From assembly GCA_045613445.1 (NCBI GenBank), contig JAZLAZ010000020.1, positions 10,433 through 74,432 of the forward strand: a DNA stretch of 64,000 nucleotides, read 5' to 3'. The position numbers and the translations under genes were made by a program. Under the pieces are notes generated by a model. That model was not told the DNA's origin. It made no database searches and was given only the letters and a program-made list of their open reading frames with translations. The stretch is from Candidatus Enterousia sp. (GTDB taxonomy: Bacteria > Pseudomonadota > Alphaproteobacteria > Rs-D84). Shown here piece after piece: positions 1-21,245 of this stretch (position 1 is the stretch's first letter; the number at the start of each line of letters is the position of its first letter).

Positions 1-1
1 T

Positions 2-1336
2 GGTGCTGCTGGGGAAGGAATGATGATAAGTGGCAGTGTGCCAATGCCTGCATCAAACCGTGCAACATTGTCACTTGTTGCTGGTACATCGACAACCATA
101 GATTTTAGCAAATATTTTAATAATTGTAATGATTTGACTATATCTGCCACATCAAGTAATCCATCTGTTGTAGATGTACAGGTTGATGGTACAATATTAA
201 AAATAACAGGTAAGCAAAAAACGACAAGTGCAGAAACTGTTGATGTAACAGTTAATTGTGGTGGTACGGAAACTAAATACATATACAGTGTATCGGTAAA
301 TGAAGCAGTTACAGAAGCTGTTACAGATGTAACAATAAAGACTACCCCAGTGGGGATAGATTTTGGTTCAGAAACAATTAATTTGGGGAATTATACATGT
401 GCGTCGGACATTATTGTGGATGCAACGTCAAGTGATGAAAGTGTTGTTACCGTAATAAAAAATGGTAATAACATATCATTAGAATATAAGAATCCGGGTA
501 CCGCACAGGTTACAGTACAGATTAAGTGTGGTAAAAATGTCTTGGATACACATAAATATAACATAACAGTTCCGAAAGAGGGCGAAGAAGTAGAGGTTAA
601 AATAATAAGCGGTAACCAAAAAGGAATAACGTTTACATCGACAAAAACATCACCGCAGAACAAAGATATTTTAAATAAAAGTATTAAAAGTGGATCAGAA
701 GAAAAGAAAGTGAATAATACAACATATACAGTAACTTCATCGTCGGAAAAAGAGGAAGGACCGTGTAATCCTATAACTAAGTCTTTTAATGATGCTGTTT
801 TGTACTATTATGGTTATAAAAAGCCAAGAATTGGGCTGTACAGTAGTGTGTCCAGTGATGGAACAAATGATAATTTAGTCAAGTTAGATACTACTTATTA
901 TAAAGTAGCTTATGCCAGTGGTGGCGGTTCTAACAATATCAGACAAATTATATATAGTTGTCCTGAGAGTCCTAGAACCTACTTTTATCCTGTTTATAAT
1001 ATGGATAAGTATGGAAATATTGAATTGACGGCTGAGCATTTTGAAAGAAGTTTTTGTATTGATAGTTGTCCTGGTGGCCAAGGTGCTTGGTTTGAATATG
1101 AGCCTGTGGATAGTGGTGGCGGCAACAAAACATTTCTAATGTATTCAAGATATGCATGTTATTTTAATGAAGGACATGCATTGGATATATGTCAGCATTA
1201 TTGTGAAAAAAATGGTATACCAGATAGTGATAATTATAGTATCAAATCTTGTACAACAGACGTTGTTGCGATTAAAGATAGTCAGTGTATGTGTAATCAA
1301 AATGTAGATGGTGCGTGGACACATAAAATGTTATAA
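2..1336 (+). CDS. Secreted surface protein, probably 5'-partial: bacterial Ig-like (Big_2-type) repeats plus Cys-rich C-terminal domain
   Basis: The frame is open from the window edge to the first ATG at 20. Repeats 'SSNPSVVDVQVDGTILKITGK' and 'SSDESVVTVIKNGNNISLEYKNPGTAQVTVQ' resemble Big_2 domains. The last ~200 aa hold many Cys (CPESP, CIDSCPGG, CQHYCEKN, CMCNQN). Confidence 0.55.
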   Translation, partial: GAAGEGMMISGSVPMPASNRATLSLVAGTSTTIDFSKYFNNCNDLTISATSSNPSVVDVQVDGTILKITGKQKTTSAETVDVTVNCGGTETKYIYSVSVNEAVTEAVTDVTIKTTPVGIDFGSETINLGNYTCASDIIVDATSSDESVVTVIKNGNNISLEYKNPGTAQVTVQIKCGKNVLDTHKYNITVPKEGEEVEVKIISGNQKGITFTSTKTSPQNKDILNKSIKSGSEEKKVNNTTYTVTSSSEKEEGPCNPITKSFNDAVLYYYGYKKPRIGLYSSVSSDGTNDNLVKLDTTYYKVAYASGGGSNNIRQIIYSCPESPRTYFYPVYNMDKYGNIELTAEHFERSFCIDSCPGGQGAWFEYEPVDSGGGNKTFLMYSRYACYFNEGHALDICQHYCEKNGIPDSDNYSIKSCTTDVVAIKDSQCMCNQNVDGAWTHKML

Positions 1337-1354
1337 ACGAGCAATTGATTTTTG

Positions 1355-1383
1355 TTGACTTTTGCAGGGTGTTGATATAAAAT
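1355..1383 (+). promoter_or_regulatory. Sigma70-like promoter upstream of rpoA (TTGACT-N17-TAAAAT)
   Basis: TTGACT at 1355-1360, a 17-nt spacer, then TAAAAT at 1378-1383. A GCAGGG/CCCTGC hairpin overlaps the spacer and -10. Confidence 0.45.
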
Positions 1384-1451
1384 CTGCCCTGCGTACACGT
1401 TTGTATGCGGCCATTTGGCGAAAATAATAAACTAAGCTAAAAGGGAAAAAT

Positions 1452-2480
1452 ATGATTGAAAAAAACTGGATGACTTTGATCAAGCCAAAAAAATTGACAG
1501 TCAAAGTTGATGAACATAATCCTAATATCGCAACACTTATCGCTGAACCATTGGAAAAAGGGTTCGGTTTGACATTGGGTACCGCATTGCGTCGTGTATT
1601 GTTGTCTTCATTGCAAGGTTGTGCACCAATTTATATCAAAATCGATGGCGTTCAACATGAATTTTCCAGTATTTCTGGTGTTCGTGAAGATGTTACAGAT
1701 ATCATCTTGAACCTGAAAGGTGTTTATTTCAAAGCCTTGACCGAAGGGCAACATAAAGCATATTTGAAAGTTAAAGGACCAGCAGTTGTTACAGCAGGTA
1801 TGATTGAAACATCTGGTGGTGTCGAAGTTATGAACAAAGATGCAGAAATTTGCACATTGGACAAAGGCGCATCATTGGATATGGAAATCACATTGGCAAC
1901 AGGTCGTGGCTATGTTCCTGCATCGCAACACGCAGATGGTTTGCCATTGGGTGTAATGCCTGTTGATTCTATCTTTTCACCAATATTGAATGTTGCAAGT
2001 GCTGTTTCTGAAACACGTGTTGGACAATCAACAGACTTTGATAAATTGGAATTGACAGTTAAAACAAACGGTGCAGTATCACCAGAAGATGCAATTGCAT
2101 ATGCTGCACGCATCTTGACTGATCAGTTGGTTGTATTTATCAATTTTGAAGATCCAGCACAAATTGGTTCTGTAAATGACGAAGAATCTGCAAAAGATGC
2201 ATTGCCATTTGATCCAAAATTGTTAAAACATGTTGATGAACTGGAATTGTCTGTTCGTGCAAACAATTGTTTGAAGAACGACAAAATCAATTGGTTGGGT
2301 GAATTGGTTCAAAAGACCGAAGCTGATATGTTAAAAACACCAAACTTTGGCCGCAAGTCTTTGAACGAAATCAAAATTCAATTGGAAGCAATGGGATTGG
2401 GACTGGGTATGGAAGTACCAGGTTGGCCACCAGAAAATATTGCTGAATTGGCAAAAAAATACGAAGACCCATACAAATAA
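1452..2480 (+). CDS. rpoA: DNA-directed RNA polymerase subunit alpha
   Basis: 342-aa ORF. The N-terminal '[26 protein letters not shown]' and C-terminal '[14 protein letters not shown]...[11 protein letters not shown]' segments are hallmark RpoA NTD and CTD. rplQ lies downstream. Confidence 0.97.
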
Positions 2481-2493
2481 ATTAAAAAATATG

Positions 2494-2576
2494 GATTCTT
2501 GTTGCGTTTGTCGGTTTTCATGTAGGTCAACTACACTTCAAACCGTCAAACGCTTCCAATAATCTCATCTTTTTTA
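2494..2576 (+). terminator. Long imperfect hairpin (about 20 bp of stem with a nested TGTAG/CTACA apical hairpin) followed by a T-run; terminator or attenuator between rpoA and rplQ
   Basis: The 5' arm GATTCTTGTTGCGTTTGTCGGTTT (from 2494) pairs with AAACCGTCAAACGCTTCCAATAATC (to 2564). TTTTTT lies at 2570-2575. Confidence 0.5.
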
Positions 2577-2742
2577 ATTTCTTGTGCTATAGCAAGGGAT
2601 GTATATAAATTTCTTGCAATTTGTGGGGATTTATATAAAATAAAGCAGAATTTTAATCCCATAATACTGAATTTTTCGGGTTATGGTGTCTCAAAAAAAT
2701 CCCGCTCGATAGGAGTAGGGCAGAAAACAAAAGGAGTAATCG

Positions 2743-3180
2743 ATGAGACATATGAAAGCAGGTCGTACATTCAATCGCGACACAAATGCACGCAAGGCCT
2801 TGTTTATTGGTTTGGCGAAAAACTTGATTGAAAAAGAACAGATTAAAACAACTTTGCCAAAGGCAAAAGATTTGCGCAGTGTCGTTGAAAAACTGATTAC
2901 TCGCGCCAAGGTTGATACTGTTGCAAACCGTCGTTTGACAGCATCTGAATTGGGTAATTCTTCTGCTGCAACTGTTAAAAAGTTGTTTGATGTATTGGGT
3001 AAACGTTATGCAAACCGCCCAGGTGGTTATACACGCGTTTTGAAGGCTGGTTTCCGTTATGGTGATGCAGCACCAATGGCAATTATCGAATTGGTTGATC
3101 GTGATGTAAATGCAAAAAAAGCATCTGCACCGGTTGAAAATTCAGAAACTGTTGCCGAAGACACAGCAAAAGCAGAATAA
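2743..3180 (+). CDS. rplQ: 50S ribosomal protein L17
   Basis: 145 aa with the N-terminus '[21 protein letters not shown]' and '[10 protein letters not shown]', both typical of L17. It has the canonical position after rpoA. Confidence 0.95.
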
Positions 3181-3199
3181 TCTATTGAAAATAGATTCA

Positions 3200-3232
3200 A
3201 AAAAAAGACCCGTATGTGCGGGTCTTTTTATT
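3200..3232 (+). terminator. Rho-independent terminator after rplQ
   Basis: AGACCCG-TATGTG-CGGGTCT stem-loop followed by TTTTTATTT. Confidence 0.8.
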
Positions 3233-3305
3233 TGTGATTGTTGAAAAACTGCTTTTATTATTTATGTCAATGTGATAAAATTAAATAAATTGGAAGGGAT
3301 ATTTT

Positions 3306-6300
3306 ATGAAAAAGGTACTATTTTTATCATTGGCATTGGTTTCTGTATTGTTTGATTCTTCTGCGTTTGCAGCGGCGGCGCGTCGCGGTCGTGCAACATC
3401 GGGAACAACAGGGACGGCGGCGACTGCATCTGCGCCAAAGACAACTGCTGCACGTGCTGCGACTAATTCTCGGACTGCGCCACGCACTGGGGCGACATCT
3501 GGGACAGCTGGACGTACGACTGCTGCGCGCAGTGCAACACCTACAACGGCCAAGGCACCAACCGTGGCTGCGCGCGCAGCAACAACGCAAAAGGTTGTTG
3601 GTACTGGGACCAAGGTTGCAGGGGCTGCAAAAAATATAGTGGTCAATGAAGAATGTCAGGCAAAGTATGAAGGTTGTATGGATTCTTTCTGTATGCTGGA
3701 TAACGAAAGTGGTGGCAGATGTATTTGTAGTGATAAAAATGCAGAATTGGATGCGATTTTTGCAGAAATTGAAAAGTTGGACGAACAATCGTATCAAATG
3801 GCAACGCTGGGGGTTGAAAAACTGGAAATGGGTGCGGATGCAGATGCGGCAATCGCAGCAGCAAGCAGTGTTGTGAATTCAATAAAAAACGGTGATACAG
3901 CGGATGGGAAAAAGAAGGCTAGGAAAGCGCTTGATTTAAGTATGTGGGATGCGACGGCAGATTTTGCAGAGGAAGAAGATATTTTTGCAGTTGCGTCTGA
4001 TCCAAATTCATTAGATGGCAAAGAAGGCGATGCGTTGCATGTGGCTGCTGCTGCATTATGTAAAGCACAAATTCCAGAATGTGCCAATGATATCAATATG
4101 CTACAGATGATGTATGGTCAACGCATTAAATCTGACTGTGCAGCATATGAAAATGTTTTGAAACAAAAGAAAACACAAAGTGCACAAAAGTTACAGGCTG
4201 CGGAACGTGCATTGCGTGAAACTGCATTGGAACAGTATCAAAATGCAAATAAATATGACTTGGGACAGTGTACAATAAAATTCAAAGAATGTATGCAGAC
4301 AACAGCAGGTTGTGGCAGTGATTTTTCAAATTGTGCGTCTGTTTCTGCGTTTGATTCAACAAATACCAGACGAAGTACATCAAAAAAGACTAAAAATTAT
4401 CAAATTGCTGGTGCTGTGTCTAATATTGAAATTTCTGCATCGACATATGATGCATTGATGGCCAAGAAACCATTATGTGAAACTGTCACAAAACAGTGCG
4501 CCAAGGTTGCAAGTCAGGTATGGGATACTTTCTTAAAAGAAGTCGCACCACAGTTAAAATCTGCCGAAATCATCGCAGAAGATAATGCCAGACAGGATTG
4601 TATCGGTAATATATCGTCATGTTTTCAAAAAGCATGTAAAGATACAATTGATCCAAAAGATCCAGATGGGTCATATGATATGTGCTTGTCAAGACCAGAA
4701 GCTATGCTGAATCTGTGTAAGGTTCCATTGAATGCATGTGGAATTGATGCCAGTTCTGCGTCCGCAGCGCAAAAATCTGATATATGGGATTTTGTAACAG
4801 CCAGACTTGCTGCAATGCGTGTGGATTCTTGTACAACAGAAGTTAAAGAATGTCTGCAGGCAGAAGATAGATGTGGCAAAGATTATTCAAATTGTATCGG
4901 ATTGGATACAGATGCGATAATAAGAATGTGTCCATATGATAAGTTGGTTGGTTGTCAAAAGGTTTATGGCGAAGAAGAAATCCGTGGTGATGCTGTATAC
5001 GAAGAATTGGCAAGAATAGCACAGGGGATTATGCTAAATATTGATAATGAAATGATTGCACAGTGTCAAAAGGCTGTTGATAATGCAATGATAAAAGTTT
5101 GTGGTGATACACAAAGTTGTACATCTTTGACAGTTGATGAAAATATTGGTGCAAGATCTTTAGAATATAAGATTTGTGAATATACCGCGGATGAAAATGG
5201 TATGTTGGATATAAATTATAATTTGTGTCGCACAGATGTTTCACAGATTCAAGATAGTGAATTGGGACGTTATTCATCTGCTCCGATAACTGTGGATAAT
5301 CCCGATACTGCAAATGACGAGGTCTTAGATTCTGTATATGCAAATAAGGGGGGTGAGATTACACCATTTGCAGGTGTGCTTGATGGAACAATATACTGGG
5401 AAAGTGTGAACTTTGATTCAGAAACAGGTAAATTGACAACATCCGATGAATATTTAAGTAAAGCAGAATATCAAAATATGACACAGAAGCAAAAAGATCG
5501 TGTTGCGTCTGAATTGAATGTTTTACAGCGCAATATTGATATGGCGATTCAATCAATTGAATCTGATCCAACAGTTCAATATTGTATGAGTGGTCGTACC
5601 GTGCCAGGAGTGCAAATAAAAGAAGAAGTTCAAAAGATTGGACGTGGCAAGGATGCTGCAAGATACCCAGAACTTACCAAGCAGATGCGTATGATTATTG
5701 CAAATCAGGCATTAAAAATAGCAAAAGATAATTACTATAAAAAATACGATGAATTAAACAATAAAATATTATCTGATTATGCAAAGATAGGTGAACGTAT
5801 TGCCGAAATCCAAGGTAAAAATTCCGAAGATGCACGTCGTGAATTGGCACGAATTGCGTGTGTTGAATTTGCAGAATCAGCCAGTTTGCCAAAAAGTGCT
5901 GAACCACCAAAGAATGCATTTGGTAAAATTGTATCTATGGTTGCAATTGCTGGTGCAGCGATAGGAATACCTTTTACTGGTGGTTTGTCTGGAGCTGCTT
6001 TGTTGGCTGCGACTATTGCGCCTGCGGCGGGTGCTGTTGCAATATCAGGCATTGGGCTTCTTGGTAATGCAGGTTCAAAATCTGCAAATGGTGATGATGT
6101 AATAAATCAAACACAGCTGACAGGTTCCAAGGCGTTGAATAACTGGAATTATAAGGAAACGATTACTTCAACATTTACATGGGATACATTACAGTGTCAA
6201 AAATGTGTAAGAACACAGACATGTAAAACAACCAAGAATCCAGTGTTTGGTAACAAATATTGTAAAGATTGGAATGATGCAGTTGAAACCTGTACTGAAA

Positions 6301-6311
6301 CTCAATTCTAA
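3306..6311 (+). CDS. Large secreted cysteine-rich protein, family member P1 (signal peptide, Ala/Arg/Thr tract, Cys modules, glycine zipper, CxxC tail)
   Basis: Signal peptide MKKVLFLSLALVSVLFDSSAFA. 'CQAKYEGCMDSFCMLDNESGGRCICS' starts at nt 3654. Modules are CTIKFKECMQTTAGCGSDFSNC and CTTEVKECLQAEDRCGKDYSNC. A Gly/Ala hydrophobic segment covers aa 872-924 (nt 5919-6077), and the tail is CQKCVRTQTCKT. Collinear with the ORF at 58670. Confidence 0.85.
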   Translation: MKKVLFLSLALVSVLFDSSAFAAAARRGRATSGTTGTAATASAPKTTAARAATNSRTAPRTGATSGTAGRTTAARSATPTTAKAPTVAARAATTQKVVGTGTKVAGAAKNIVVNEECQAKYEGCMDSFCMLDNESGGRCICSDKNAELDAIFAEIEKLDEQSYQMATLGVEKLEMGADADAAIAAASSVVNSIKNGDTADGKKKARKALDLSMWDATADFAEEEDIFAVASDPNSLDGKEGDALHVAAAALCKAQIPECANDINMLQMMYGQRIKSDCAAYENVLKQKKTQSAQKLQAAERALRETALEQYQNANKYDLGQCTIKFKECMQTTAGCGSDFSNCASVSAFDSTNTRRSTSKKTKNYQIAGAVSNIEISASTYDALMAKKPLCETVTKQCAKVASQVWDTFLKEVAPQLKSAEIIAEDNARQDCIGNISSCFQKACKDTIDPKDPDGSYDMCLSRPEAMLNLCKVPLNACGIDASSASAAQKSDIWDFVTARLAAMRVDSCTTEVKECLQAEDRCGKDYSNCIGLDTDAIIRMCPYDKLVGCQKVYGEEEIRGDAVYEELARIAQGIMLNIDNEMIAQCQKAVDNAMIKVCGDTQSCTSLTVDENIGARSLEYKICEYTADENGMLDINYNLCRTDVSQIQDSELGRYSSAPITVDNPDTANDEVLDSVYANKGGEITPFAGVLDGTIYWESVNFDSETGKLTTSDEYLSKAEYQNMTQKQKDRVASELNVLQRNIDMAIQSIESDPTVQYCMSGRTVPGVQIKEEVQKIGRGKDAARYPELTKQMRMIIANQALKIAKDNYYKKYDELNNKILSDYAKIGERIAEIQGKNSEDARRELARIACVEFAESASLPKSAEPPKNAFGKIVSMVAIAGAAIGIPFTGGLSGAALLAATIAPAAGAVAISGIGLLGNAGSKSANGDDVINQTQLTGSKALNNWNYKETITSTFTWDTLQCQKCVRTQTCKTTKNPVFGNKYCKDWNDAVETCTETQF

Positions 6312-6316
6312 GATAA

Positions 6317-6346
6317 TAAAAACCCGCTACAGCGGGTTTTTATTTT
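6317..6346 (+). terminator. Rho-independent terminator after P1
   Basis: AAAAACCCGC-TACA-GCGGGTTTTTATTTT. Confidence 0.8.
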
Positions 6347-6382
6347 GCAGGACAGAATAAATTAAAAAAAGTATATTTTTAC

Positions 6383-6411
6383 TTGATTTTTGGGGTGGGG
6401 TGGGGTATTAT
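6383..6411 (+). promoter_or_regulatory. Sigma70-like promoter of rpsB-tsf (TTGATT-N17-TATTAT) with a G-run spacer
   Basis: TTGATT at 6383-6388, spacer TTTGGGGTGGGGTGGGG (17 nt), TATTAT at 6406-6411. rpsB starts about 110 nt downstream. Confidence 0.5.
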
Positions 6412-6523
6412 ACGGGCACGCACGTCGTGCGAAGAACACAACCATTCTGCAATATTTGTGTCCAGATAATATTCTGGTCTGACCGCAGATGGCGAGGATA
6501 ACAACACAAAAAAGGATAAAATC

Positions 6524-7375
6524 ATGGCATTGCCAACTTTTACAATGAAACAGTTGATGGAAGCAGGTGTTCACTTTGGTCACCACACACGTCGCTGGAA
6601 TCCATTGATGACACCATATGTTTATGGCGTTAAAGATAAAATTCATATCATCAATTTGAACAAAACTGCACCACTGTTACACCGTTCTTTGGTCGCATTG
6701 GAAGCAATCGCTGCCGCAGGTGGTAAGGTTCTGTTCGTTGCTACAAAACATCAAGCAAAAGATATCGTAAAAGATGCTGCGGAACGTTGTGGTCAATTCT
6801 ATGTTAATAACCGCTGGTTGGGTGGTATGTTGACTAACTGGACAACAGTTTCTCAGTCTATCCGTCGCTTGAAGAAAATGGAAGCTGATATTGAAAACGC
6901 TGAAAAATTGGGCCTGACAAAGAAAGAAGTCGGTGTAATGACCAAAGAAGTTGAAAAACTGCGTGGTATTTTCGGCGGTATTATGGAAATGCATGGCACA
7001 CCACAGGCAATCGTTATTATTGACGTGCCACGTGAAATGAATGCTGTTCGCGAAGCAAAGAACTTGGATATCCCAACAATTGCAATTTGCGATACAAATG
7101 CAAATCCAGAAATGGTTGATTACCCAGTTCCAGGTAATGATGATGCTGCGCGCGCAACACAATTGTACTGCGACTTGTTCGTAGATGCGATTTTGTCTGG
7201 TATCGAAAAACGCTTAGGCGGTGCGGCTGGCAAAAAAATTGCATCTGAAAATATGGCAGATGCAGCCGATGAACTGGAAGATGAAATCAAAGAAAAAGAA
7301 GCCAGAGTTAAATCAAAAACAACTGCTGCACGCGCAGAACGCCGCAGCAAATTGGCTGAAAAAGCAGATAAATAA
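6524..7375 (+). CDS. rpsB: 30S ribosomal protein S2
   Basis: 'HFGHHTRRWNP' and 'NNRWLGGMLTNW' are S2 signatures. Followed by tsf. Confidence 0.97.
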   Translation: MALPTFTMKQLMEAGVHFGHHTRRWNPLMTPYVYGVKDKIHIINLNKTAPLLHRSLVALEAIAAAGGKVLFVATKHQAKDIVKDAAERCGQFYVNNRWLGGMLTNWTTVSQSIRRLKKMEADIENAEKLGLTKKEVGVMTKEVEKLRGIFGGIMEMHGTPQAIVIIDVPREMNAVREAKNLDIPTIAICDTNANPEMVDYPVPGNDDAARATQLYCDLFVDAILSGIEKRLGGAAGKKIASENMADAADELEDEIKEKEARVKSKTTAARAERRSKLAEKADK

Positions 7376-7400
7376 TATCTGATTTTATCAAAATATAATC

Positions 7401-7425
7401 GTGCAGGGGGAATTTGCCCCTGCAC
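7401..7425 (+). promoter_or_regulatory. Intercistronic stem-loop between rpsB and tsf (possible attenuator or processing site)
   Basis: GTGCAGGGG-GAATTTG-CCCCTGCAC is a 9-bp perfect stem. No immediately adjacent T-run. Confidence 0.35.
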
Positions 7426-7461
7426 AAAAGAATTCTTTTAACAAAGATGGGAGAAAATACA

Positions 7462-8331
7462 ATGGCAGAAATTACAGCAAAATTGATTCAAGAATTGCGT
7501 GAAAAAACATCCGCTGGTATGATGGATTGCAAGAAAGCCTTGATGGAAAATGATGGCGATATCCAAGCTGCTGCTGATTGGTTGCGCCAAAAAGGTATCG
7601 TAAAAGCTGCTTCAAAAGCAGGCCGTGTTGCTGCATCTGGTTTGGTAACTGTTGTAAAATGTGACAATATGGGTTGTGTTGTTGAATTAAATGCAGAAAC
7701 AGACTTTGTTGCTAAAAATGAAAAATTCCAAAAGTTGGTCGCAGATGTTGCAGCAAAAGCAGCGGAATTGCAGGGCGATTTTGATGCAACAATGGAAGCT
7801 GTCAAAGATGATATTGCTGCAACCATTTCTACAATTGGTGAAAATATGAATTTGCGTCGTATTGCAAAAGTAAATGGTGATAAAATCTTTACTTATATTC
7901 ACAATGCGTTGGTTCCAGGTATGGGGCAGATTGGTGTTGCTGTTGCAATCGACGGTACAGATGAAAAAATTGATGAAATTGGTTCAAAAGTTGCAATGCA
8001 TATCGCTGCAAATAAACCAGAATTTATGACAGTTGCAGATGTTGATCCTGTTGCTGTTGAACGCGAAAAGAAAGTGTTCGTTGAATCTGGTGCAACAGCT
8101 GGTAAACCAGAAAATATCGTTGAAAAAATGATCGAAGGTCGTATTAAAAAATGGTATGGCGAAAGCGTTCTGGAAGAACAACCATTTGTTATGGATCCAT
8201 CAAAAACAGTTAAAGAAGTCGTCGCAGAAGCTGGCGGTAAATTAGCTGGTTTTGCATTCTTTGTTTTGGGCGAAGGTATCCAAAAACGTGAAGATAACTT
8301 GGCAGACGAAGTTGCAAAAATGTTGGGTTAG
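7462..8331 (+). CDS. tsf: Elongation factor Ts
   Basis: 'MAEITAKLIQELREKTSAGMMDCKKAL' is the EF-Ts N-terminus. Start moved from the track's 7414 to ATG 7462, which has GGGAGA just upstream. Confidence 0.95.
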   Translation: MAEITAKLIQELREKTSAGMMDCKKALMENDGDIQAAADWLRQKGIVKAASKAGRVAASGLVTVVKCDNMGCVVELNAETDFVAKNEKFQKLVADVAAKAAELQGDFDATMEAVKDDIAATISTIGENMNLRRIAKVNGDKIFTYIHNALVPGMGQIGVAVAIDGTDEKIDEIGSKVAMHIAANKPEFMTVADVDPVAVEREKKVFVESGATAGKPENIVEKMIEGRIKKWYGESVLEEQPFVMDPSKTVKEVVAEAGGKLAGFAFFVLGEGIQKREDNLADEVAKMLG

Positions 8332-16355: not shown

Positions 16356-17432
16356 TTAGTCAATCTTTACAGAAAATATTGTTTGTTGCTTTTCTGTATC
16401 CAATGGATGGTATTGAAATTGGACTGTTGCAAAATCTATGTTCTTCATATCAATACTGCGAATCGTTCGATTGTACATTGTGTGGTAATAGATAATCTTG
16501 TTTTTAAGGTCTGTTGCAATCGTCCATTGTGTTGCTGCAGGCATATCTGTTGGGGATTTCCCAACCGCGTATTCGACACCAGATGGAATATCAACGTTGT
16601 TCAAGATGTGAAATGCTTGTTCAACCGATTTTTCGCCTGTGTCTTGTTCCAGTGCAAATGTTTTTAAGAATGCTGCGCGAACAAATCGTGATGGTGGGGT
16701 AAAGTCGCCGGGTAATCCGCGCAGACCAGAACCAGAACCAAATGCGTGTAATGTAATTGGACCAAATTGTGTGGGGCCGGCAGTGCCTGGATGCAGATTT
16801 ACATAATTATTCAAATTTGTCATATGCCATGGAAATCCTGGAGAATTAGTCAGAACACCAATTTCGTTTTCATAAAAGTTTGGGCGGCCGTCAACTATTT
16901 CTAAGACAACTTGGCGACCATTTGGTTCTGTTATGCGCCAGTGTACAGTTGATGCGGTTGGATCAATGTTTATGATGCGAACATCGTTGATTGCGGCTTT
17001 GACCTGGTCAATGGTTGAAAATCGTGACAATATCCATGAAACAACTTGGAAATCTGCCAGTGATATATCTTTGCTTTTTTCATTGTATTCTTGGTATTCG
17101 CCATAGTTCGGGAAATAGAACAGGGCAGCCGATAAACCCGCTTCATTTGTGCCATCAACAACAAATTCTGGCTGTTCAACAGCGATTCCGGCATAACCAT
17201 ACAATGATATAAAGTTTAAACCGTCCATTGTTCCGTCTGGTAACAGTGATTGATTATGATGACCGCGTGGGACGATGGTGTACAGATTGTTCATTTCGGA
17301 TCCCGACCAATCAACAGTGCGTGCGACAACAGTTGCGTTGTCTTTTGATTTTAATGTTATGCCGGTGCATGCGCTGGCATTTTGTATTAGTGCGATACAG
17401 ATGCTTAGTGTTGCGATAAATAAATTTTTCAT
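16356..17432 (-). CDS. Exported choloylglycine hydrolase family protein (bile salt hydrolase / penicillin V acylase-type Ntn hydrolase)
   Basis: The signal peptide MKNLFIATLSICIALIQNASA is followed directly by the nucleophile Cys in 'CTGITLKSKDNATVVARTVDW'. A perfect AAGGAGG SD lies upstream of ATG 17432. Confidence 0.8.
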   Translation of the reverse strand: MKNLFIATLSICIALIQNASACTGITLKSKDNATVVARTVDWSGSEMNNLYTIVPRGHHNQSLLPDGTMDGLNFISLYGYAGIAVEQPEFVVDGTNEAGLSAALFYFPNYGEYQEYNEKSKDISLADFQVVSWILSRFSTIDQVKAAINDVRIINIDPTASTVHWRITEPNGRQVVLEIVDGRPNFYENEIGVLTNSPGFPWHMTNLNNYVNLHPGTAGPTQFGPITLHAFGSGSGLRGLPGDFTPPSRFVRAAFLKTFALEQDTGEKSVEQAFHILNNVDIPSGVEYAVGKSPTDMPAATQWTIATDLKNKIIYYHTMYNRTIRSIDMKNIDFATVQFQYHPLDTEKQQTIFSVKID

Positions 17433-17499: not shown

Positions 17500-18036
17500 T
17501 TACATTGACAGTAATGGTTGCCAGATTTTTAGTATCTCGTTATAGTCTGCGTACATTTCAAGAAATTCAATCGTAGAATATATTATTTCTAGTTGTTTTT
17601 GTGACCATTTGTATTTGTCGTTATAACGCAGTTTTTTTTCAAACCATTGTGATACGGTTAAATCATTTGGGTCTTTGTGCGTTAGGTATCTTTGTTCAAA
17701 GTTAGCACTGAACCAATCACATATCATTTCAATCAATGTTATGTTGCTGATTTCTGATGCGTTTGAATAGTAGTTTATATGGTGTGGTTGTGTGGCATGA
17801 TGTTCATCACTCATCGTTCTGAATAGTTCGCAATATTTTTCGGGAATATTATATTCAGGATGATAACTAGCATAATTTATATACGAGTATGCAATCATCA
17901 TTGGGCCAGAATTTTTATCGTTATCATGTTCTGGGAAATGGTAACCTAAGAGTCCTGCATGATAATTCAGGCAATTGATATGTGCCTGGGTTCGGATAAA
18001 ATGAAATTTGTTGATAGTTTCGATTGGGATCTGCAT
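17500..18036 (-). CDS. Hypothetical protein with His-rich motifs (HDNDK, DEHHATQPHHINYY), possibly DUF5662-like
   Basis: Start set at ATG 18036, because the longer ORF to 18120 would overlap the tRNA gene. The His/Asp pattern resembles a phage-associated family as I recall it. Weak. Confidence 0.4.
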   Translation of the reverse strand: MQIPIETINKFHFIRTQAHINCLNYHAGLLGYHFPEHDNDKNSGPMMIAYSYINYASYHPEYNIPEKYCELFRTMSDEHHATQPHHINYYSNASEISNITLIEMICDWFSANFEQRYLTHKDPNDLTVSQWFEKKLRYNDKYKWSQKQLEIIYSTIEFLEMYADYNEILKIWQPLLSM

Positions 18037-18112: not shown

Positions 18113-18186
18113 TGGGGCATAGTTTAATGGTAGAACTCCGGACTCTGACTCCGTCAGTGTTGGTTCGAATCCAGCTGCCCCAACCA
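18113..18186 (+). tRNA. tRNA-Gln (anticodon CUG)
   Basis: Manual cloverleaf: acceptor TGGGGCA/TGCCCCA, D-arm GTTT-AATGGTA-GAAC, anticodon arm CCGGA-CTCTGAC-TCCGT (U33, CUG, A37), T-arm GTTGG-TTCGAAT-CCAGC, encoded ACCA. One C:U mismatch at the top of the anticodon stem. Confidence 0.85.
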
Positions 18187-18191
18187 AAATT

Positions 18192-18220
18192 CAAACGCCC
18201 CGTGTGGGCGTTTTAATTTT
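18192..18220 (+). terminator. Terminator after tRNA-Gln
   Basis: ACGCCC-CGTGT-GGGCGT followed by TTTTAATTTTT. Confidence 0.7.
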
Positions 18221-18226
18221 TGGTTA

Positions 18227-18324
18227 TGGGGTAATGAGATGAGAACCAACAGTTCGAGCCGTAGGCGAAAGGGGCCCATAGAGCGAAAGCGAATATGGGA
18301 ATTACAATCCAGCTGCCCCAACCA
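18227..18324 (+). other. tRNA-like element or decayed tRNA-Gln copy whose ends can form the tRNA-Gln acceptor stem
   Basis: 5' TGGGGTA (18227-18233) pairs with 3' TGCCCCA (18314-18320), followed by ACCA. The 80-nt interior does not fold as a cloverleaf and contains GAAA-loop mini-hairpins. Confidence 0.3.
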
Positions 18325-18325
18325 A
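18306..18325 (+). repeat. Perfect 20-bp direct copy of the tRNA-Gln 3' end (att-like)
   Basis: AATCCAGCTGCCCCAACCAA at 18168-18187 and again at 18306-18325. Flanking bases are also similar. Confidence 0.9.
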
Positions 18326-18329
18326 GATA

Positions 18330-18448
18330 GACAAACCCGTCGATAAAGGCGGGTTTTTGTTTGGTTTCTAATGTTTCCAGTGAGTTCGAAAGTTAAATTT
18401 TGAAAAATGGCAAAAAAAATTATCATTTTCGAACTTTTGTGGTATAAT
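18330..18448 (+). repeat. Module A, copy 1 (hairpin, operator-like inverted repeat and promoter)
   Basis: Aligns with 19851-19967 at roughly 85-90% by eye, with a 2-nt indel. The first 65 nt differ at only 2 positions. Confidence 0.85.
18420..18448 (+). promoter_or_regulatory. Cassette promoter 1: TTATCA-N17-(TGG)TATAAT with the TTTCGAACT half-operator in the spacer
   Basis: The -35 is at 18420-18425 and the extended -10 TGGTATAAT ends at 18448. AGTTCGAAA (18383-18391) is the exact inverted partner of TTTCGAACT (18427-18435). Confidence 0.6.
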
Positions 18449-18455
18449 ATTTTGT

Positions 18456-19568
18456 ATGAAAACAGAGAGTTATAATAAAGCCATAGATAAAGTTCATGCA
18501 CTTGTTGGTGAATCTGTAACTAAACAGATACCTACATTGGATCATGTTATGGATGTTGAGCATATGTCCGAATCAGATAAAATCTGGTATGAAGCATATA
18601 AAAAATATGGGAATCGTAATCATACATGGCAAGATTTTAAAGATATGTTTTATGGTGATATGCAAACCATGCAAAAAACGGTTGTAAACTGGAAAACTTG
18701 GGATGAAATAAATGATTTATTATCCCAATCCGATGTTTTAAGAACAGAAGTGCGAAAATTACTAGGAAAATACGATATACGTTCTATTAGCGAAGAAAAA
18801 ATAGAAGAATATGCACGTATAAAAAAAGAACACCCCGATTTAGTAGCGATTTATGAAAAATATCTGGCTGTTGATGATTTAACACATGCAAATTATTCTA
18901 CATTTAATCCACAAGTTGCGAAACTGGAAAAAGAATTTGAAATAAAATCAAAAGCTATAAACCCTGATGATAAAAAATCAAAAATAGATTTAATTGTAGA
19001 ATATATAAAAAAAATGGACGAATATGTTGATTTAAAAAACGGTGATTTTGTGCTTGGCGAACGTATAGAAATGTACAGAAAAATTATATTGAAAGATTCA
19101 ACAATTTTAATGATGATACAAAATTTTGATAATTTATCTGGTGCAGAAAAGGTTGATTTGGCGCGTATGATTTTAAATAAAAGTGCAAAAATTACAGGCA
19201 CACCAACAGGAAGAGTGATCCACGATGATGCTACTGATGGACCACATGTATTAAGAGAAAATCAAGGCGCTGGATACAATAAAAAAGGTGAAAGATTTTT
19301 ATTTCGTGGGGATGTGTCTAATTTTTCTAAATTATGGAACTTTTTGAAAACACTGGCACATGAAGATGCGCACAGAATTGATTATTATAATGCAGAATAT
19401 GGTATGATTGGGACTCAACTTATGCAATTTGTAGAAAATAATTATCTGAATAATTCAGATATTGATGAAGAATTATATCGTAAATTTGCTACCGAGCAAA
19501 GTTCTTACTATCTTGATAAAACAATCGGGTCTGCATTGAAATACGAAATAGAACACCAAAATTCATAA
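18456..19568 (+). CDS. Hypothetical protein with an HExxH zinc-metallopeptidase-like motif (cassette 1 cargo)
   Basis: 370 aa, no signal peptide, 'LAHEDAHRIDYYN' near the C-terminus. Otherwise unrecognised. Confidence 0.55.
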   Translation: MKTESYNKAIDKVHALVGESVTKQIPTLDHVMDVEHMSESDKIWYEAYKKYGNRNHTWQDFKDMFYGDMQTMQKTVVNWKTWDEINDLLSQSDVLRTEVRKLLGKYDIRSISEEKIEEYARIKKEHPDLVAIYEKYLAVDDLTHANYSTFNPQVAKLEKEFEIKSKAINPDDKKSKIDLIVEYIKKMDEYVDLKNGDFVLGERIEMYRKIILKDSTILMMIQNFDNLSGAEKVDLARMILNKSAKITGTPTGRVIHDDATDGPHVLRENQGAGYNKKGERFLFRGDVSNFSKLWNFLKTLAHEDAHRIDYYNAEYGMIGTQLMQFVENNYLNNSDIDEELYRKFATEQSSYYLDKTIGSALKYEIEHQNS

Positions 19569-19604
19569 ATCAAGTAAGAAATAGTTTATCTTTAATTTCA
19601 TAAA

Positions 19605-19660
19605 TCTCTTTTCCAATCTTTACCAATTCGGTTCGCGAATTGCATGACATGCACAACCAA
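19605..19660 (+). repeat. Module B, copy 1 (3'-UTR hairpin CAATTCG-GTTCG-CGAATTG, then ...ACAACCAAGATA)
   Basis: Aligns with 20710-20765 at about 80% by eye. Contains a 7-bp perfect palindromic stem. Confidence 0.75.
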
Positions 19661-19667
19661 GATAAGA

Positions 19668-19697
19668 TAAAAATGTCCCTATGGGGCATTTTTATTT
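19668..19697 (+). terminator. Terminator of cassette 1
   Basis: ATGTCCC-TAT-GGGGCAT followed by TTTTTATTTT. Confidence 0.7.
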
Positions 19698-19850
19698 TAT
19701 TCGGGGTGGCTGGATCGGTCAGAGTGTCAACGGCACGCACGACCAATACGAGAATAGACAATTAAAAAAATCTTCAAAAATCGACCAAGGGAGATTTTTT
19801 TGATTTTTATTATTGTATATCGAGGCACCCAGCTGCGACCGATCAAGATT

Positions 19851-19967
19851 GACAAACACGTCGATAAAGGCGGGTTTTTGTTTGGTTTCTAATGTTTCCA
19901 GCGAGTTCGAAAGTTGAGTTTTAGAAAACATCAAAAAATTGTCATTTTCGAACTTTTGTGGTATAAT
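19851..19967 (+). repeat. Module A, copy 2
   Basis: See copy 1. Preceded at 19828-19850 by CCCAGCTGCGACCGATCAAGATT, a degenerate version of the tRNA-Gln 3' end. Confidence 0.85.
19939..19967 (+). promoter_or_regulatory. Cassette promoter 2: TTGTCA-N17-(TGG)TATAAT
   Basis: The -35 is at 19939-19944 and TATAAT at 19962-19967. It has the same TTTCGAACT spacer element and upstream AGTTCGAAA partner. Confidence 0.6.
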
Positions 19968-19994
19968 TCTGTAGAAAAAAATAAAGGTCATAAC

Positions 19995-20576
19995 ATGGAA
20001 AAATTCTTTGAAATATTTAAGAAAAATCAAAAAACAGAAAGATTAGAACTTCGTATTTTGGAACCAACAATTGAAAATGCGAAGTTGGTATGGGATATTG
20101 TTAAATCACAAAATCCAGACGATTTCAAATATGTATGGTTCACAGCTACACATAATTCTCATATGACAGAATCTTTGGAAGAAACTTTACAAAGAATTAA
20201 ATTAGATTATGAATCTAAAACAGGTTGTGCATATTATATATTCCATAACGGTAATTTTGTTGGTTATCAAAGAATTCATTATGTTGAATCTTCAAGAACC
20301 TTGCAATGTGCAGCAGTTTGGTTTGTTAAATCTGCATGGGGTAATGGTTTTAATCAAGAAGTTCATAGGAAATTAGAATCTATGGCATTTGACGAATTGG
20401 GTGCAAATCGTATATGTCGTCAAATCATGCCAGCCAATATTCGTTCAAAAAAATCTATTGAAGCTGGTGGGTATCACCTTGATGGTATAGACAGACAAGC
20501 AGAAATGCAACCTGATGGCAGTTTTACTGACAGGTGTTTATATTCTAAATTGCTAAGCGAATATAAACAAAAATAA
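19995..20576 (+). CDS. GNAT-family N-acetyltransferase (RimJ/RimL-like), cassette 2 cargo
   Basis: 'TERLELRILEPTIENAKLVWDIV' N-terminus and 'FVGYQRIHY...VKSAWGNGFNQE' core, about 190 aa. Start set at ATG 19995. Confidence 0.6.
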   Translation: MEKFFEIFKKNQKTERLELRILEPTIENAKLVWDIVKSQNPDDFKYVWFTATHNSHMTESLEETLQRIKLDYESKTGCAYYIFHNGNFVGYQRIHYVESSRTLQCAAVWFVKSAWGNGFNQEVHRKLESMAFDELGANRICRQIMPANIRSKKSIEAGGYHLDGIDRQAEMQPDGSFTDRCLYSKLLSEYKQK

Positions 20577-20709
20577 AAAGGATTTTGGTTTTGATGTATC
20601 TGATGAAAATATATCTGATATATTAAATGCAATTCCAAATTGGAACGAACCAAATATAAACGGTGGTATTACAAATAAAATTTGGGCAGAAAACAAAAAT
20701 AATTTTCAA

Positions 20710-20765
20710 TCTCTCGTCCAATCTCCGCCAATTCGGCTCGCGAATTGCATGACGAGTACAACCAA
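20710..20765 (+). repeat. Module B, copy 2
   Basis: CCAATTCGGCTCGCGAATTGCATGACGAGTACAACCAA, against CCAATTCGGTTCGCGAATTGCATGACATGCACAACCAA in copy 1. Confidence 0.75.
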
Positions 20766-20766
20766 T

Positions 20767-20794
20767 ATAAAAACGCCCAAATGGGCGTTTTTTT
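20767..20794. terminator. Bidirectional terminator shared by cassette 2 and ssb
   Basis: AAAAACGCCC-AAAT-GGGCGTTTTTTT. Confidence 0.8.
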
Positions 20795-21245
20795 AAAATG
20801 GAATATCATCACCGATTTCAGAAACGGATATTTCTTCGCGTGGTTGTGGTGCAGATGGTGTTGATGAGCTGTATTCACCACCGTCAATTGTTTTTGCACC
20901 AGACAGAATAACCATTTGGCCTGCGAACTGATTTAATACAACTTCGGTTGTAAATACGTCTGCACCGGATTGGTTTTGCCATTTGCGTGTGCGCAGGGAG
21001 CCTTCTAAATACAATTTTGTGCCTTTTTGCAACATACGTTCTGCAACTTCGACCAAGTTCGAATTAAAGATTACAACACGATGCCATTCTGTTTGTTCTT
21101 TCTGTTCGCCTGTGCTACGATCGCGCCAACGTTCAGATGTTGCCAATGAAAAGCTGACAACTTTTTGACCGCTGCCCATTGTGCGAACCTGAGGTTCTTG
21201 ACCAATATTTCCAACCAAGATTACTTTATTTATACTGCCTGCCAT
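20793..21245 (-). CDS. ssb: Single-stranded DNA-binding protein
   Basis: '[19 protein letters not shown]' is the OB-fold start, with an acidic 'DDIPF' tail. 150 aa. Confidence 0.95.

Follow-up and report, generated by a model that had tools for sequence, protein, structure and literature searches.

Single-gene cassettes behind a tRNA-Gln gene of Candidatus Enterousia: a probable landing pad for elements of a large serine recombinase family

We analysed a 64-kb stretch of DNA from Candidatus Enterousia sp. (contig JAZLAZ010000020.1; hereafter the window, with positions counted from its first letter), in which a tRNA-Gln(CTG) gene heads an array of two small cassettes. Each cassette consists of a left-end module A, one cargo gene and a right-end module B. 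By analogy, the closest described systems appear to be the composite islands of the staphylococcal cassette chromosome (SCC) and the accretion of cis-mobilizable elements (CIMEs) and integrative and conjugative elements (ICEs), and, in terms of function, the integrons. We consider it probable that the locus is the landing pad of an element family driven by a large serine recombinase (LSR), with the cassettes as recombinase-less mini-derivatives mobilized in trans. No description of such arrays emerged from our search of the literature on Enterousia, on tRNA-gene cassette arrays and on tRNA-targeting serine recombinases.

In staphylococci, SCC composite islands use the LSRs CcrAB and CcrC, occupy the 3' end of rlmH/orfX and include ccr-less pseudo-SCC cassettes. 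The arrays described here resemble them in the type of recombinase, in the position at the 3' end of one conserved housekeeping gene, in the tandem arrangement with short direct repeats, in the many recombinase-less units presumed to be mobilized in trans, and in the accessory-gene cargo. They differ in that the target is the CCA end of a tRNA, that the units measure 1-1.5 kb and usually hold one gene, that the units keep a recombinase-gene stub apparently turned into a promoter/terminator module, and that the hosts are uncultured gut Alphaproteobacteria; moreover, the arrays are known from sequence alone, from which we infer their mobility. The accretion of CIMEs and ICEs, as seen with ICESt1/3 of Streptococcus thermophilus, involves tyrosine integrases and kb-scale remnants. 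There, as here, the att-bearing ends are kept, units accumulate in tandem at the element's site, and a sibling's recombinase is needed; by contrast, our arrays point to a serine integrase and consist of uniform single-gene cassettes found throughout a lineage.

The textbook example of a device that stores and swaps single genes is the integron. With integrons, and with clusters of attC sites lacking integron-integrases (CALINs), the arrays share a fixed chromosomal store of mostly single-gene cassettes, the occurrence of units without an open reading frame (ORF), and a similar cargo of acetyltransferases, phosphotransferases, NUDIX proteins and transporters. An earlier note on this DNA called the locus integron-like; this fits functionally, but there is no IntI, no attI and no Pc promoter, no site was recognized as a canonical attC, the cassettes bring promoters of their own and occur in both orientations, units are bounded by the CCA end of a tRNA, and the enzyme would be a serine recombinase acting on double-stranded sites. 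Integrons are reportedly not on record for Alphaproteobacteria. The islands of Prochlorococcus, including tycheposons, are tRNA-linked and built from element remnants. They share with our locus the tRNA hotspot, partial tRNA 3' repeats between cargo segments and recombinase-less remnants, whereas the units here are standardized by two end modules and shared between species at high identity.

The anatomy of the locus is given in Table 1. The tRNA cloverleaf with its anticodon was scored by two programs, and the earlier note had placed the tRNA, the two units, their modules and their cargo correctly to within one or two bases. The copy of the tRNA-Gln 3' end that it reported downstream of the gene is a 23-nt repeat with one mismatch (18306-18328); the window contains exactly two copies of its core, CCAGCTGCCCCAACCA, whereas 0.37 matches would be expected with three or fewer mismatches allowed. 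Such tRNA-3'-like sequences had been taken as the starts of the cassettes, and they are better assigned to the ORF-less units that come before (18187-18324 and 19660-19845), whose right ends they form. The Type 1 unit, with an insert of about 48 nt placed after GTTCGA, would thus supply a second B-type end, directly behind which cassette 1 (18325-19659) lies. Likewise, the Type 3 unit finishes in a degenerate B-type end, CCCAGCTGCGACCGATCA, directly followed by cassette 2 (19846-20764), which is closed by the distal terminator. Each CAACCA end in the window is followed by a terminator-like hairpin. The ssb gene (20793-21245, minus strand) converges on the array.

The two copies of module A (18318-18467 and 19839-19986) lie about 1.5 kb apart and share 88% column identity, and those of module B (19603-19665 and 20708-20770) are 84% identical. 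The 26-nt core of module B occurred twice in the window, with none expected from 100 shuffles; no further copy of either module was found elsewhere in the 64 kb. In module A, the inverted repeat AGTTCGAAA/TTTCGAACT has its arms at 18383-18391 and 18427-18435 in cassette 1 and at 19904-19912 and 19946-19954 in cassette 2. The promoter of cassette 1 reads TTATCA-17-TATAAT (18420-18448), with the -35 box at 18420-18425 and a TG-extended -10 box at 18443-18448; that of cassette 2 reads TTGTCA-17-TATAAT (19939-19967) and is likewise preceded by TG at its -10 box. Both are the best TG-preceded consensus matches on the plus strand of the region. The hairpin of module A in cassette 2 resembles that of cassette 1, although the terminator scan did not report it. 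In module B of cassette 1, GTTCG lies 29 nt from the terminal CAACCA.

Table 1. Features of the cassette array in the window
Feature	Position	Strand	Evidence or remark
tRNA-Gln(CTG), array head	18113-18186	+	ARAGORN; Rfam tRNA RF00005, 64.5 bits
Native tRNA terminator, type X, hairpin 18193-18213	18187-18226	+	Terminator scan
ORF-less Type 1 unit, pseudo-tRNA-like	18227-18324	+	Ends in perfect tRNA 3' copy AATCCAGCTGCCCCAACCA
Module A of cassette 1	18325-18455	+	Terminator hairpin 18333-18356, inverted-repeat arms, outward promoter
Cargo 1, 370 aa, HEDAH motif	18456-19568	+	Open reading frame, without Pfam family
Module B of cassette 1, right end, putative P-type half-site	19598-19659	+	Hairpin CAATTCG-GTTCG-CGAATTG
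Terminator (inverted repeat 19662-19700) and ORF-less Type 3 unit (~19700-19845)	19660-19845	+	
Module A of cassette 2	19846-19994	+	Hairpin, inverted-repeat arms, promoter
Cargo 2, GNAT acetyltransferase, 193 aa	19995-20576	+	PF13302, E = 1.5e-11
Module B of cassette 2, array end	20703-20764	+	GCTCG 29 nt from CAACCA
Distal terminator, hairpin 20769-20792	20765-20797	.	At 3' end of convergent ssb

Pattern scans of species-representative genomes and of metagenomes, together with profile searches, yielded 90 loci in which modules A and B occur together; the named sources are Candidatus Enterousia and gut or rumen Alphaproteobacteria. The head of the array was visible in 61 arrays, and 50 of these begin within 500 nt of a tRNA gene on the same strand. 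The head tRNA is Gln-CTG in 30 arrays, Gln-TTG in 13, Met in 5 (all one lineage), and Glu and Ser in one each. In three of the other 11, a tRNA-Gln gene lies further upstream, with the gap in locus L141 filled by an intact recombinase element. An array holds one to six copies of module A. The earlier note had proposed a search for more module copies with a tabulation of their cargo, and a comparison of tRNA-Gln loci among strains. Both, the latter carried out among relatives, gave positive results: the 131 cargo ORFs of the 90 loci fell into 74 families, 41 of them singletons, with 69 ORFs in forward and 62 in reverse orientation, and both cargo and cassette number differ between relatives at the same tRNA-Gln. 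At three loci with homologues of cargo 1, for example, a tRNA-Gln gene lies just upstream and different small genes lie downstream.

The borders of the units were uniform. Cassettes, a second right-end type (B2) and the ORF-less units of Types 1-3 all end in CAACCA, which is the 3' end of tRNA-Gln; the tRNA-Met heads end in GCAACCA. Where copies of one cassette occur in different arrays, homology stops at CAACCA. A 719-nt unit in L054 and L173, for instance, is 98.6% identical exactly from one CAACCA to the next, and what lies to its left differs: tRNA-Gln(TTG) at one locus, a degenerate end at the other. A methyltransferase cassette in L095 and L101 breaks in the same CAACCA-bounded way, and its copy in L178 stands behind a degenerate end, ...GCGGCCGCCCA, instead of CAACCA. 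The left neighbours share only 6-9 nt, which favours site-specific over homologous joining. A crossover within the T-loop TTCGAA was also considered and dropped, because the cleanest pairs break at CAACCA. Furthermore, the identity of cassettes between genomes is 95-97%, compared with 68-77% for the genes that flank them; cargo 1 and its copy in L001 share 95% nucleotide identity, against 76% for the neighbouring ssb. Since the cassettes are more alike than the genes around them, these comparisons show that single cassettes have moved horizontally between species. The general picture of the earlier note, small self-promoted cassettes inserted site-specifically at a tRNA gene, is therefore borne out by the 90 loci, their variable cargo and number, the breaks at CAACCA and the contrast in identity between cassettes and core genes.

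No recombinase was detected in the window, either by a Pfam scan of 26 of its ORFs or by tblastn with the LSR of the related locus L207, and none was found by Pfam among the ten commonest gene families flanking the 90 arrays; the Pfam scans of window ORFs and flanking families gave only housekeeping genes, the choloylglycine-hydrolase family (CBAH), DUF1015, DUF374 and a MarR/efflux operon. The earlier remark that no integrase is nearby thus holds for the window but fails for its relatives, where the recombinase it suggested seeking elsewhere, of the serine type, is encoded by full-length siblings at the very same site. L207, a contig assembled from a metagenome, belongs to a relative of the window genome: its hydrolase gene ahead of the tRNA is 92.6% identical to that of the window (16356-17432), and the two tRNA promoters are nearly alike. 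Directly after the CAACCA of its tRNA-Gln, on the opposite strand, follows a gene for 506 aa with the Pfam domains Resolvase, Recombinase and Zn_ribbon_recom and the catalytic motif RVSSREQ. By sequence, this protein matches the structures of the A118 and TP901-1 integrases (PDB 4kis and 3bvp). It agrees with them in structure match, in the three domains and in a box placed 5 bp outward in the element half-site, and differs from them in belonging to small non-phage elements, in targeting tRNA 3' ends and in having a gene whose 3' end overlaps the attachment region.

An autonomous element is expected to encode Resolvase, Recombinase and zinc-ribbon domains together; this combination was present in L207, L141, L248 and L249 and absent from the window cassettes. 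In L141 and L248 the intact elements measure about 7.3 kb with both ends visible, and their right ends finish in ...GTTCGAAATTCGTTTGCTATCGTCAACCA. The right end in L248 is followed by X-type sequence of the same kind as that after the window tRNA, and L248 shares the upstream flanking genes of the window (choloylglycine-hydrolase family and DUF5662). In L207 and L248, therefore, an autonomous LSR element sits at tRNA-Gln(CTG), the same target in the same lineage. The element of L207 also occurs in L247, with a 97% identical recombinase, behind a tRNA-Gln(TTG)-type end; the two junctions have only CCCCAACCA in common.

The counterpart of module A is the last ~60 codons of the L207 recombinase gene. 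Its codons for SSKVE and LSN correspond to the two repeat arms and those for RKPFDVLL to the hairpin that follows CAACCA; the reading frame runs on into the tRNA. At the nucleotide level, module A aligns to the 3' ends of the recombinase genes of L207, L141 and L248, and intermediate remnants retain similarity to the LSR at the protein level (56% over 63 aa in L164, for example). Within the LSR family, 39 of 120 tails match SSK + L[SGTA]N exactly and most others are close variants. This homology indicates that module A is the vestigial 3' end of an LSR gene on the minus strand, rather than primarily the operator-promoter module proposed in the earlier note.

The geometry of the ends points in the same direction. 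In all 57 head tRNAs, the T-loop box GTTCGA/GTTCAA starts 24 nt from the terminal A of CCA; for module B, the distance from the start of G[TC]TCG to the A of CAACCA is 29 nt in 70 of the 73 distinct copies. The spacing of 24 and 29 nt is kept in a separate tRNA-Glu lineage, in which the module B analogue ends in ...GCATCACCA and mimics tRNA-Glu. The right ends of L141 and L248 also have their box 29 nt from the terminal CAACCA, at a modest mean column identity of 64% to module B. In the structure of the A118 integrase bound to attP (4kis), the motif of the zinc-ribbon domain is displaced outward by 5 bp in attP relative to attB. This rule would assign the B half-site to the tRNA 3' end and the P half-site to module B. 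The last bases of tRNA-Gln, ...GGTTCGAATCCAGCTGCCCCAACCA, are accordingly read as the left (B) half of the attachment site, with the type X terminator as the presumed B' half, so that the junction of tRNA and X terminator (18113-18226) looks like an empty primary attB. At the other end of the array, the distal terminator is presumed to be the B' flank. The CAACCA core with its box about 5 bp outward, as expected of a serine-integrase site, was recognized in the left halves only.

Taken together, the following mechanism would explain these data. LSR elements would insert immediately after the 3'-terminal ...CAACCA of tRNA-Gln, the LSR reading the T-loop box and the CCA end. A full-length element of about 7 kb carries the LSR gene at its left end, convergent with the tRNA and with its last ~60 codons reaching the junction, and closes on the right with a pseudo-tRNA 3' end, G[TC]TCG-N24-CAACCA. 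A mini-cassette keeps only the left ~130 nt (module A), one cargo gene and the right ~60 nt (module B), and the stub of the LSR gene would now provide the terminator hairpin, the TTCGAA inverted repeat and the outward extended -10 promoter. In keeping with a non-autonomous derivative, both element ends are retained in the window cassettes, the left one as module A and the right one in the layout of module B. With a B-type end before it and a terminator after it, each window cassette would have an attL...attR configuration, which a serine integrase could produce without unusual reactions. An LSR supplied in trans, together with a directionality factor for excision, would then move the cassettes, and homologous recombination between modules would add shuffling and make direct junctions of module B with module A.

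Read in this way, the locus suggests an integron-like solution reached from a different start, namely LSR elements miniaturized to one-gene cassettes at a tRNA. If true, the principle of SCC-type composite islands would gain a tRNA as its target and a context that is new at the level of the phylum. The arrays would also offer natural pairs of short attB-like and attP-like sites for a large and mostly uncharacterized serine integrase family, and integrases reading the T loop and CCA could be of interest for genome engineering because such targets exist in every organism. Finally, the hotspot would move accessory enzymes between gut species, among them acetyl-, methyl-, phospho- and ADP-ribosyl-transferases, transporters and peptidases.

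Several observations weigh against this interpretation. No LSR gene was found in the 64-kb window, and the enzyme acting in trans is an assumption. The similarity of the window module A copies to the LSR is not significant at the protein level, and their link to it is by way of the nucleotide alignment and the intermediate copies. The sequences to the right of CAACCA are diverse terminator hairpins; inverted symmetry with the left halves was looked for, and none was convincing. Large serine integrases normally recombine only attP with attB, so the direct junctions of module B with module A (P-P') in L001 and L002 need another route; we tentatively attribute them to homologous recombination, with the breakpoints in L079/L101 (see below) as indirect support. 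The strong conservation of the repeat arms in non-coding cassettes is left unexplained by a model of LSR derivatives alone. Moreover, the loci were collected with patterns derived from the modules, and their counts are not an unbiased census.

The arms deserve closer attention. They are almost invariant in cassettes although they no longer code for protein. Pairing of the inverted repeat into a hairpin was rejected, as only one of five single-arm changes was compensated and covariation did not support pairing. Because invariance persists in non-coding cassettes and the changes are mostly uncompensated, the arms likely have a sequence-specific function. They may be a site for the recombinase or its directionality factor, or the operator suggested in the earlier note, or they may have been homogenized by gene conversion. 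In cassettes with forward cargo, the -35 box is located between the arms. With reverse cargo, module A ends at the second arm, and the space between the arms is usually taken by a G+C-rich hairpin, which would be predicted to act as a bidirectional terminator.

A bolder version of the LSR reading seems possible to us, though we hold it only tentatively. It sees a true LSR-based analogue of the integron, in which the enzyme captures, excises and exchanges single-gene cassettes between species in trans and the units of Types 1-3 are working parts of the platform (landing pads or RNAs) and not scars. The LSR family would then read the T-loop box plus CCA as attB, with the TTCGAA repeat as a still-conserved cis site. 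The ORF-less units do carry hairpins with compensatory changes. Type 1 has about nine related copies in other loci, two of them in L095. Type 3, about 145 nt long, has 22; its two ends repeat the 3' end of the local tRNA-Gln in inverted orientation to each other and switch jointly, with CAGCTG at CTG-type loci and CGTGCGC at TTG-type loci, and its long A+T-rich hairpin keeps its pairing through changes on both sides. The Type 1-3 units had no match in Rfam, and a permissive Rfam search over the window region and eight related loci returned only tRNAs. We also observed an insert of about 48-85 nt placed exactly between GTTCGA and the following A, in the window (18258-18305), in L001 (5861-5931), in L027, L014, L038 and L087, and in others. 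It sits in the T loops of pseudo-tRNAs and, in L001, within the left arm of the module A inverted repeat. In its common version, Type 2, it forms two hairpins in which the base changes between copies compensate each other, and Rfam returned no match for it. The insert looks like a tiny site-specific insertion or a structured RNA.

Classical tyrosine-integrase islets, of which decayed attL and attR scars would remain with the cassettes as deletion leftovers, are an unlikely explanation for the array as a whole. The 19-23-nt copies of the tRNA 3' end that close Types 1 and 3 are the classical signature of such islets. Across the units, a direct repeat of the tRNA 3' end of at least 15 nt at the far border was found only in Type 1 (23 nt) and, degenerately, in Type 3. 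An element of this kind was also seen: L247 (flipped, 1-8250) has an element of about 8 kb with a 498-aa tyrosine integrase (Phage_integrase) targeting tRNA-Gln(TTG). It ends in a 16-nt tRNA copy, directly behind which lies the serine-recombinase element, and the two integrase families thus share one hotspot. However, the gene end to which module A is homologous belongs to a recombinase of the serine and not of the tyrosine class, module B has nothing in common with the tRNA beyond CAACCA and the shifted G[TC]TCG box, and unrelated arrays contain highly identical copies of the same cassettes. The tyrosine-integrase reading probably applies to the spacer units of Types 1 and 3. In all, the units of Types 1-3 may be scars of elements like that of L247 or something functional.

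Homologous recombination alone, in the manner of the 'minimal mobile elements' of Neisseria, would make the modules mere flanking homology used after DNA uptake, and we regard it as quite unlikely. A second class of breakpoints speaks for a part of this process: in pairs such as L079/L101, high identity is confined to the segment from the inverted repeat to the start of module B, which fits homologous exchange between conserved modules, and the modules are 80-90% identical across cassettes. But the same unit is found joined to tRNA, Type 1-3, B or B2 ends that share just 6-9 nt, too little for RecA, and coincidence would have to account both for the descent of the ends from an LSR element and for the 24/29 geometry.

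An atypical integron or CALIN, with attC-like hairpins at the junctions and an IntI-type enzyme encoded elsewhere, is very improbable. It would account for the mostly single-gene cassettes with typical cargo (GNAT, APH, NUDIX, methyltransferases and transporters) and for the position of CAACCA at the foot of a long hairpin at many junctions. By eye, GCCCAAC agrees with the attC box RYYYAAC, while its partner box and the order of the boxes depart from the R''/L''-L'/R' pattern of attC; Rfam contains no attC family. Against the integron reading, no tyrosine recombinase was found beside the 90 arrays, among their recurrent flanking gene families, or among the 26 window ORFs scanned, and no intI or attI adjoins the array. 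Instead of promoterless cassettes in one orientation read from Pc, cargo lies both ways round and forward cassettes have promoters of their own, the hairpins after CAACCA are not conserved in kind, and units meet at the 3' end of a tRNA.

That a promoter/terminator region was simply duplicated in tandem on the spot, without mobility, is scarcely credible, since the 88% identity of the two module A copies 1.5 kb apart is set against 90 loci in many species, 74 cargo families, content that differs between close relatives, and, as the earlier note had argued, two unrelated cargo proteins. Elements of the HUH (IS200/IS605-like) type, Xer/dif modules and canonical attC sites were dropped upon inspection, with no matching end hairpins, dif-like sites or box order.

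As to the cargo, protein 1 had no Pfam match and no significant match by sequence to a solved structure (best E ~0.06). Its 68 homologues all come from metagenomes or metagenome-assembled genomes (MAGs), with uncultured alphaproteobacterial MAGs as the only named sources. The start of cargo 2 is at 19995, not 19996, and its GNAT family also serves as cargo in L002, L034, L045 and L236. Look-ups of both exact proteins found nothing on record. Across the arrays, the Pfam classes of cargo include GNATs, methyltransferases, an APH phosphotransferase, NUDIX, HIT, ADP-ribosyltransferase and NADAR proteins, peptidases, and MFS, ABC and EamA transporters, among others. Between the GNAT stop codon and module B, cassette 2 has ~126 nt of non-coding DNA (20577-20702) that cassette 1 lacks and that may be left over from a gene.

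The recombinase family extends well beyond these arrays. Its targets are the 3' ends of tRNA-Gln, -Met, -Glu, -Asp, -Lys and -Asn, and homologues were found convergent with and abutting genes for tRNA-Gln, -Asp, -Glu, -Lys and -Asn (Asp in L229, L226 and L145; Glu in L140, L189, L191 and L168; Lys in L147; Asn in L167). With more than 1,500 database members, the family appears to insert at many tRNA 3' ends. The 3' end of the gene overlaps the junction, and many predicted proteins end in translated tRNA, such as WLGQLDSNQH. Two pattern scans of IMG/VR for carriage by phages gave a sole match, a chance one within a GC-rich coding region. The intact elements hold genes of defence type: L207 (4817-6816) encodes an AAA_21 (AbiEii-like) ATPase, and the elements of L249 (6500-9500) and L250 encode a DNA methylase, an NgoFVII-type restriction enzyme and a HigB toxin.

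The surroundings of the arrays vary with the tRNA. Those at tRNA-Gln(TTG) (L014, L084, L087, L118, L164, L173, L222 and others) always stand beside a divergent MarR/HxlR-type regulator, followed by an RND efflux operon (OEP, fusion protein and ACR_tran), and those at tRNA-Gln(CTG) adjoin a choloylglycine-hydrolase-family gene and DUF1015 genes. In the window, a DUF5662 gene (17500-18036, minus strand) lies between the upstream hydrolase gene and the tRNA. It is absent in L207, and a homologue is cargo within the array of L117; therefore the flanking DUF5662 gene of the window may itself be accessory. The ssb gene is downstream of the array and convergent with it in the window, and upstream in L001 (3867-4316). 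In L248, the whole segment of tRNA and element is inverted relative to the upstream choloylglycine-hydrolase-family and DUF5662 genes, and in L146 (1463-1530) two arrays are joined tail to tail at module B. The repeats may drive inversions of the array and its flanks.

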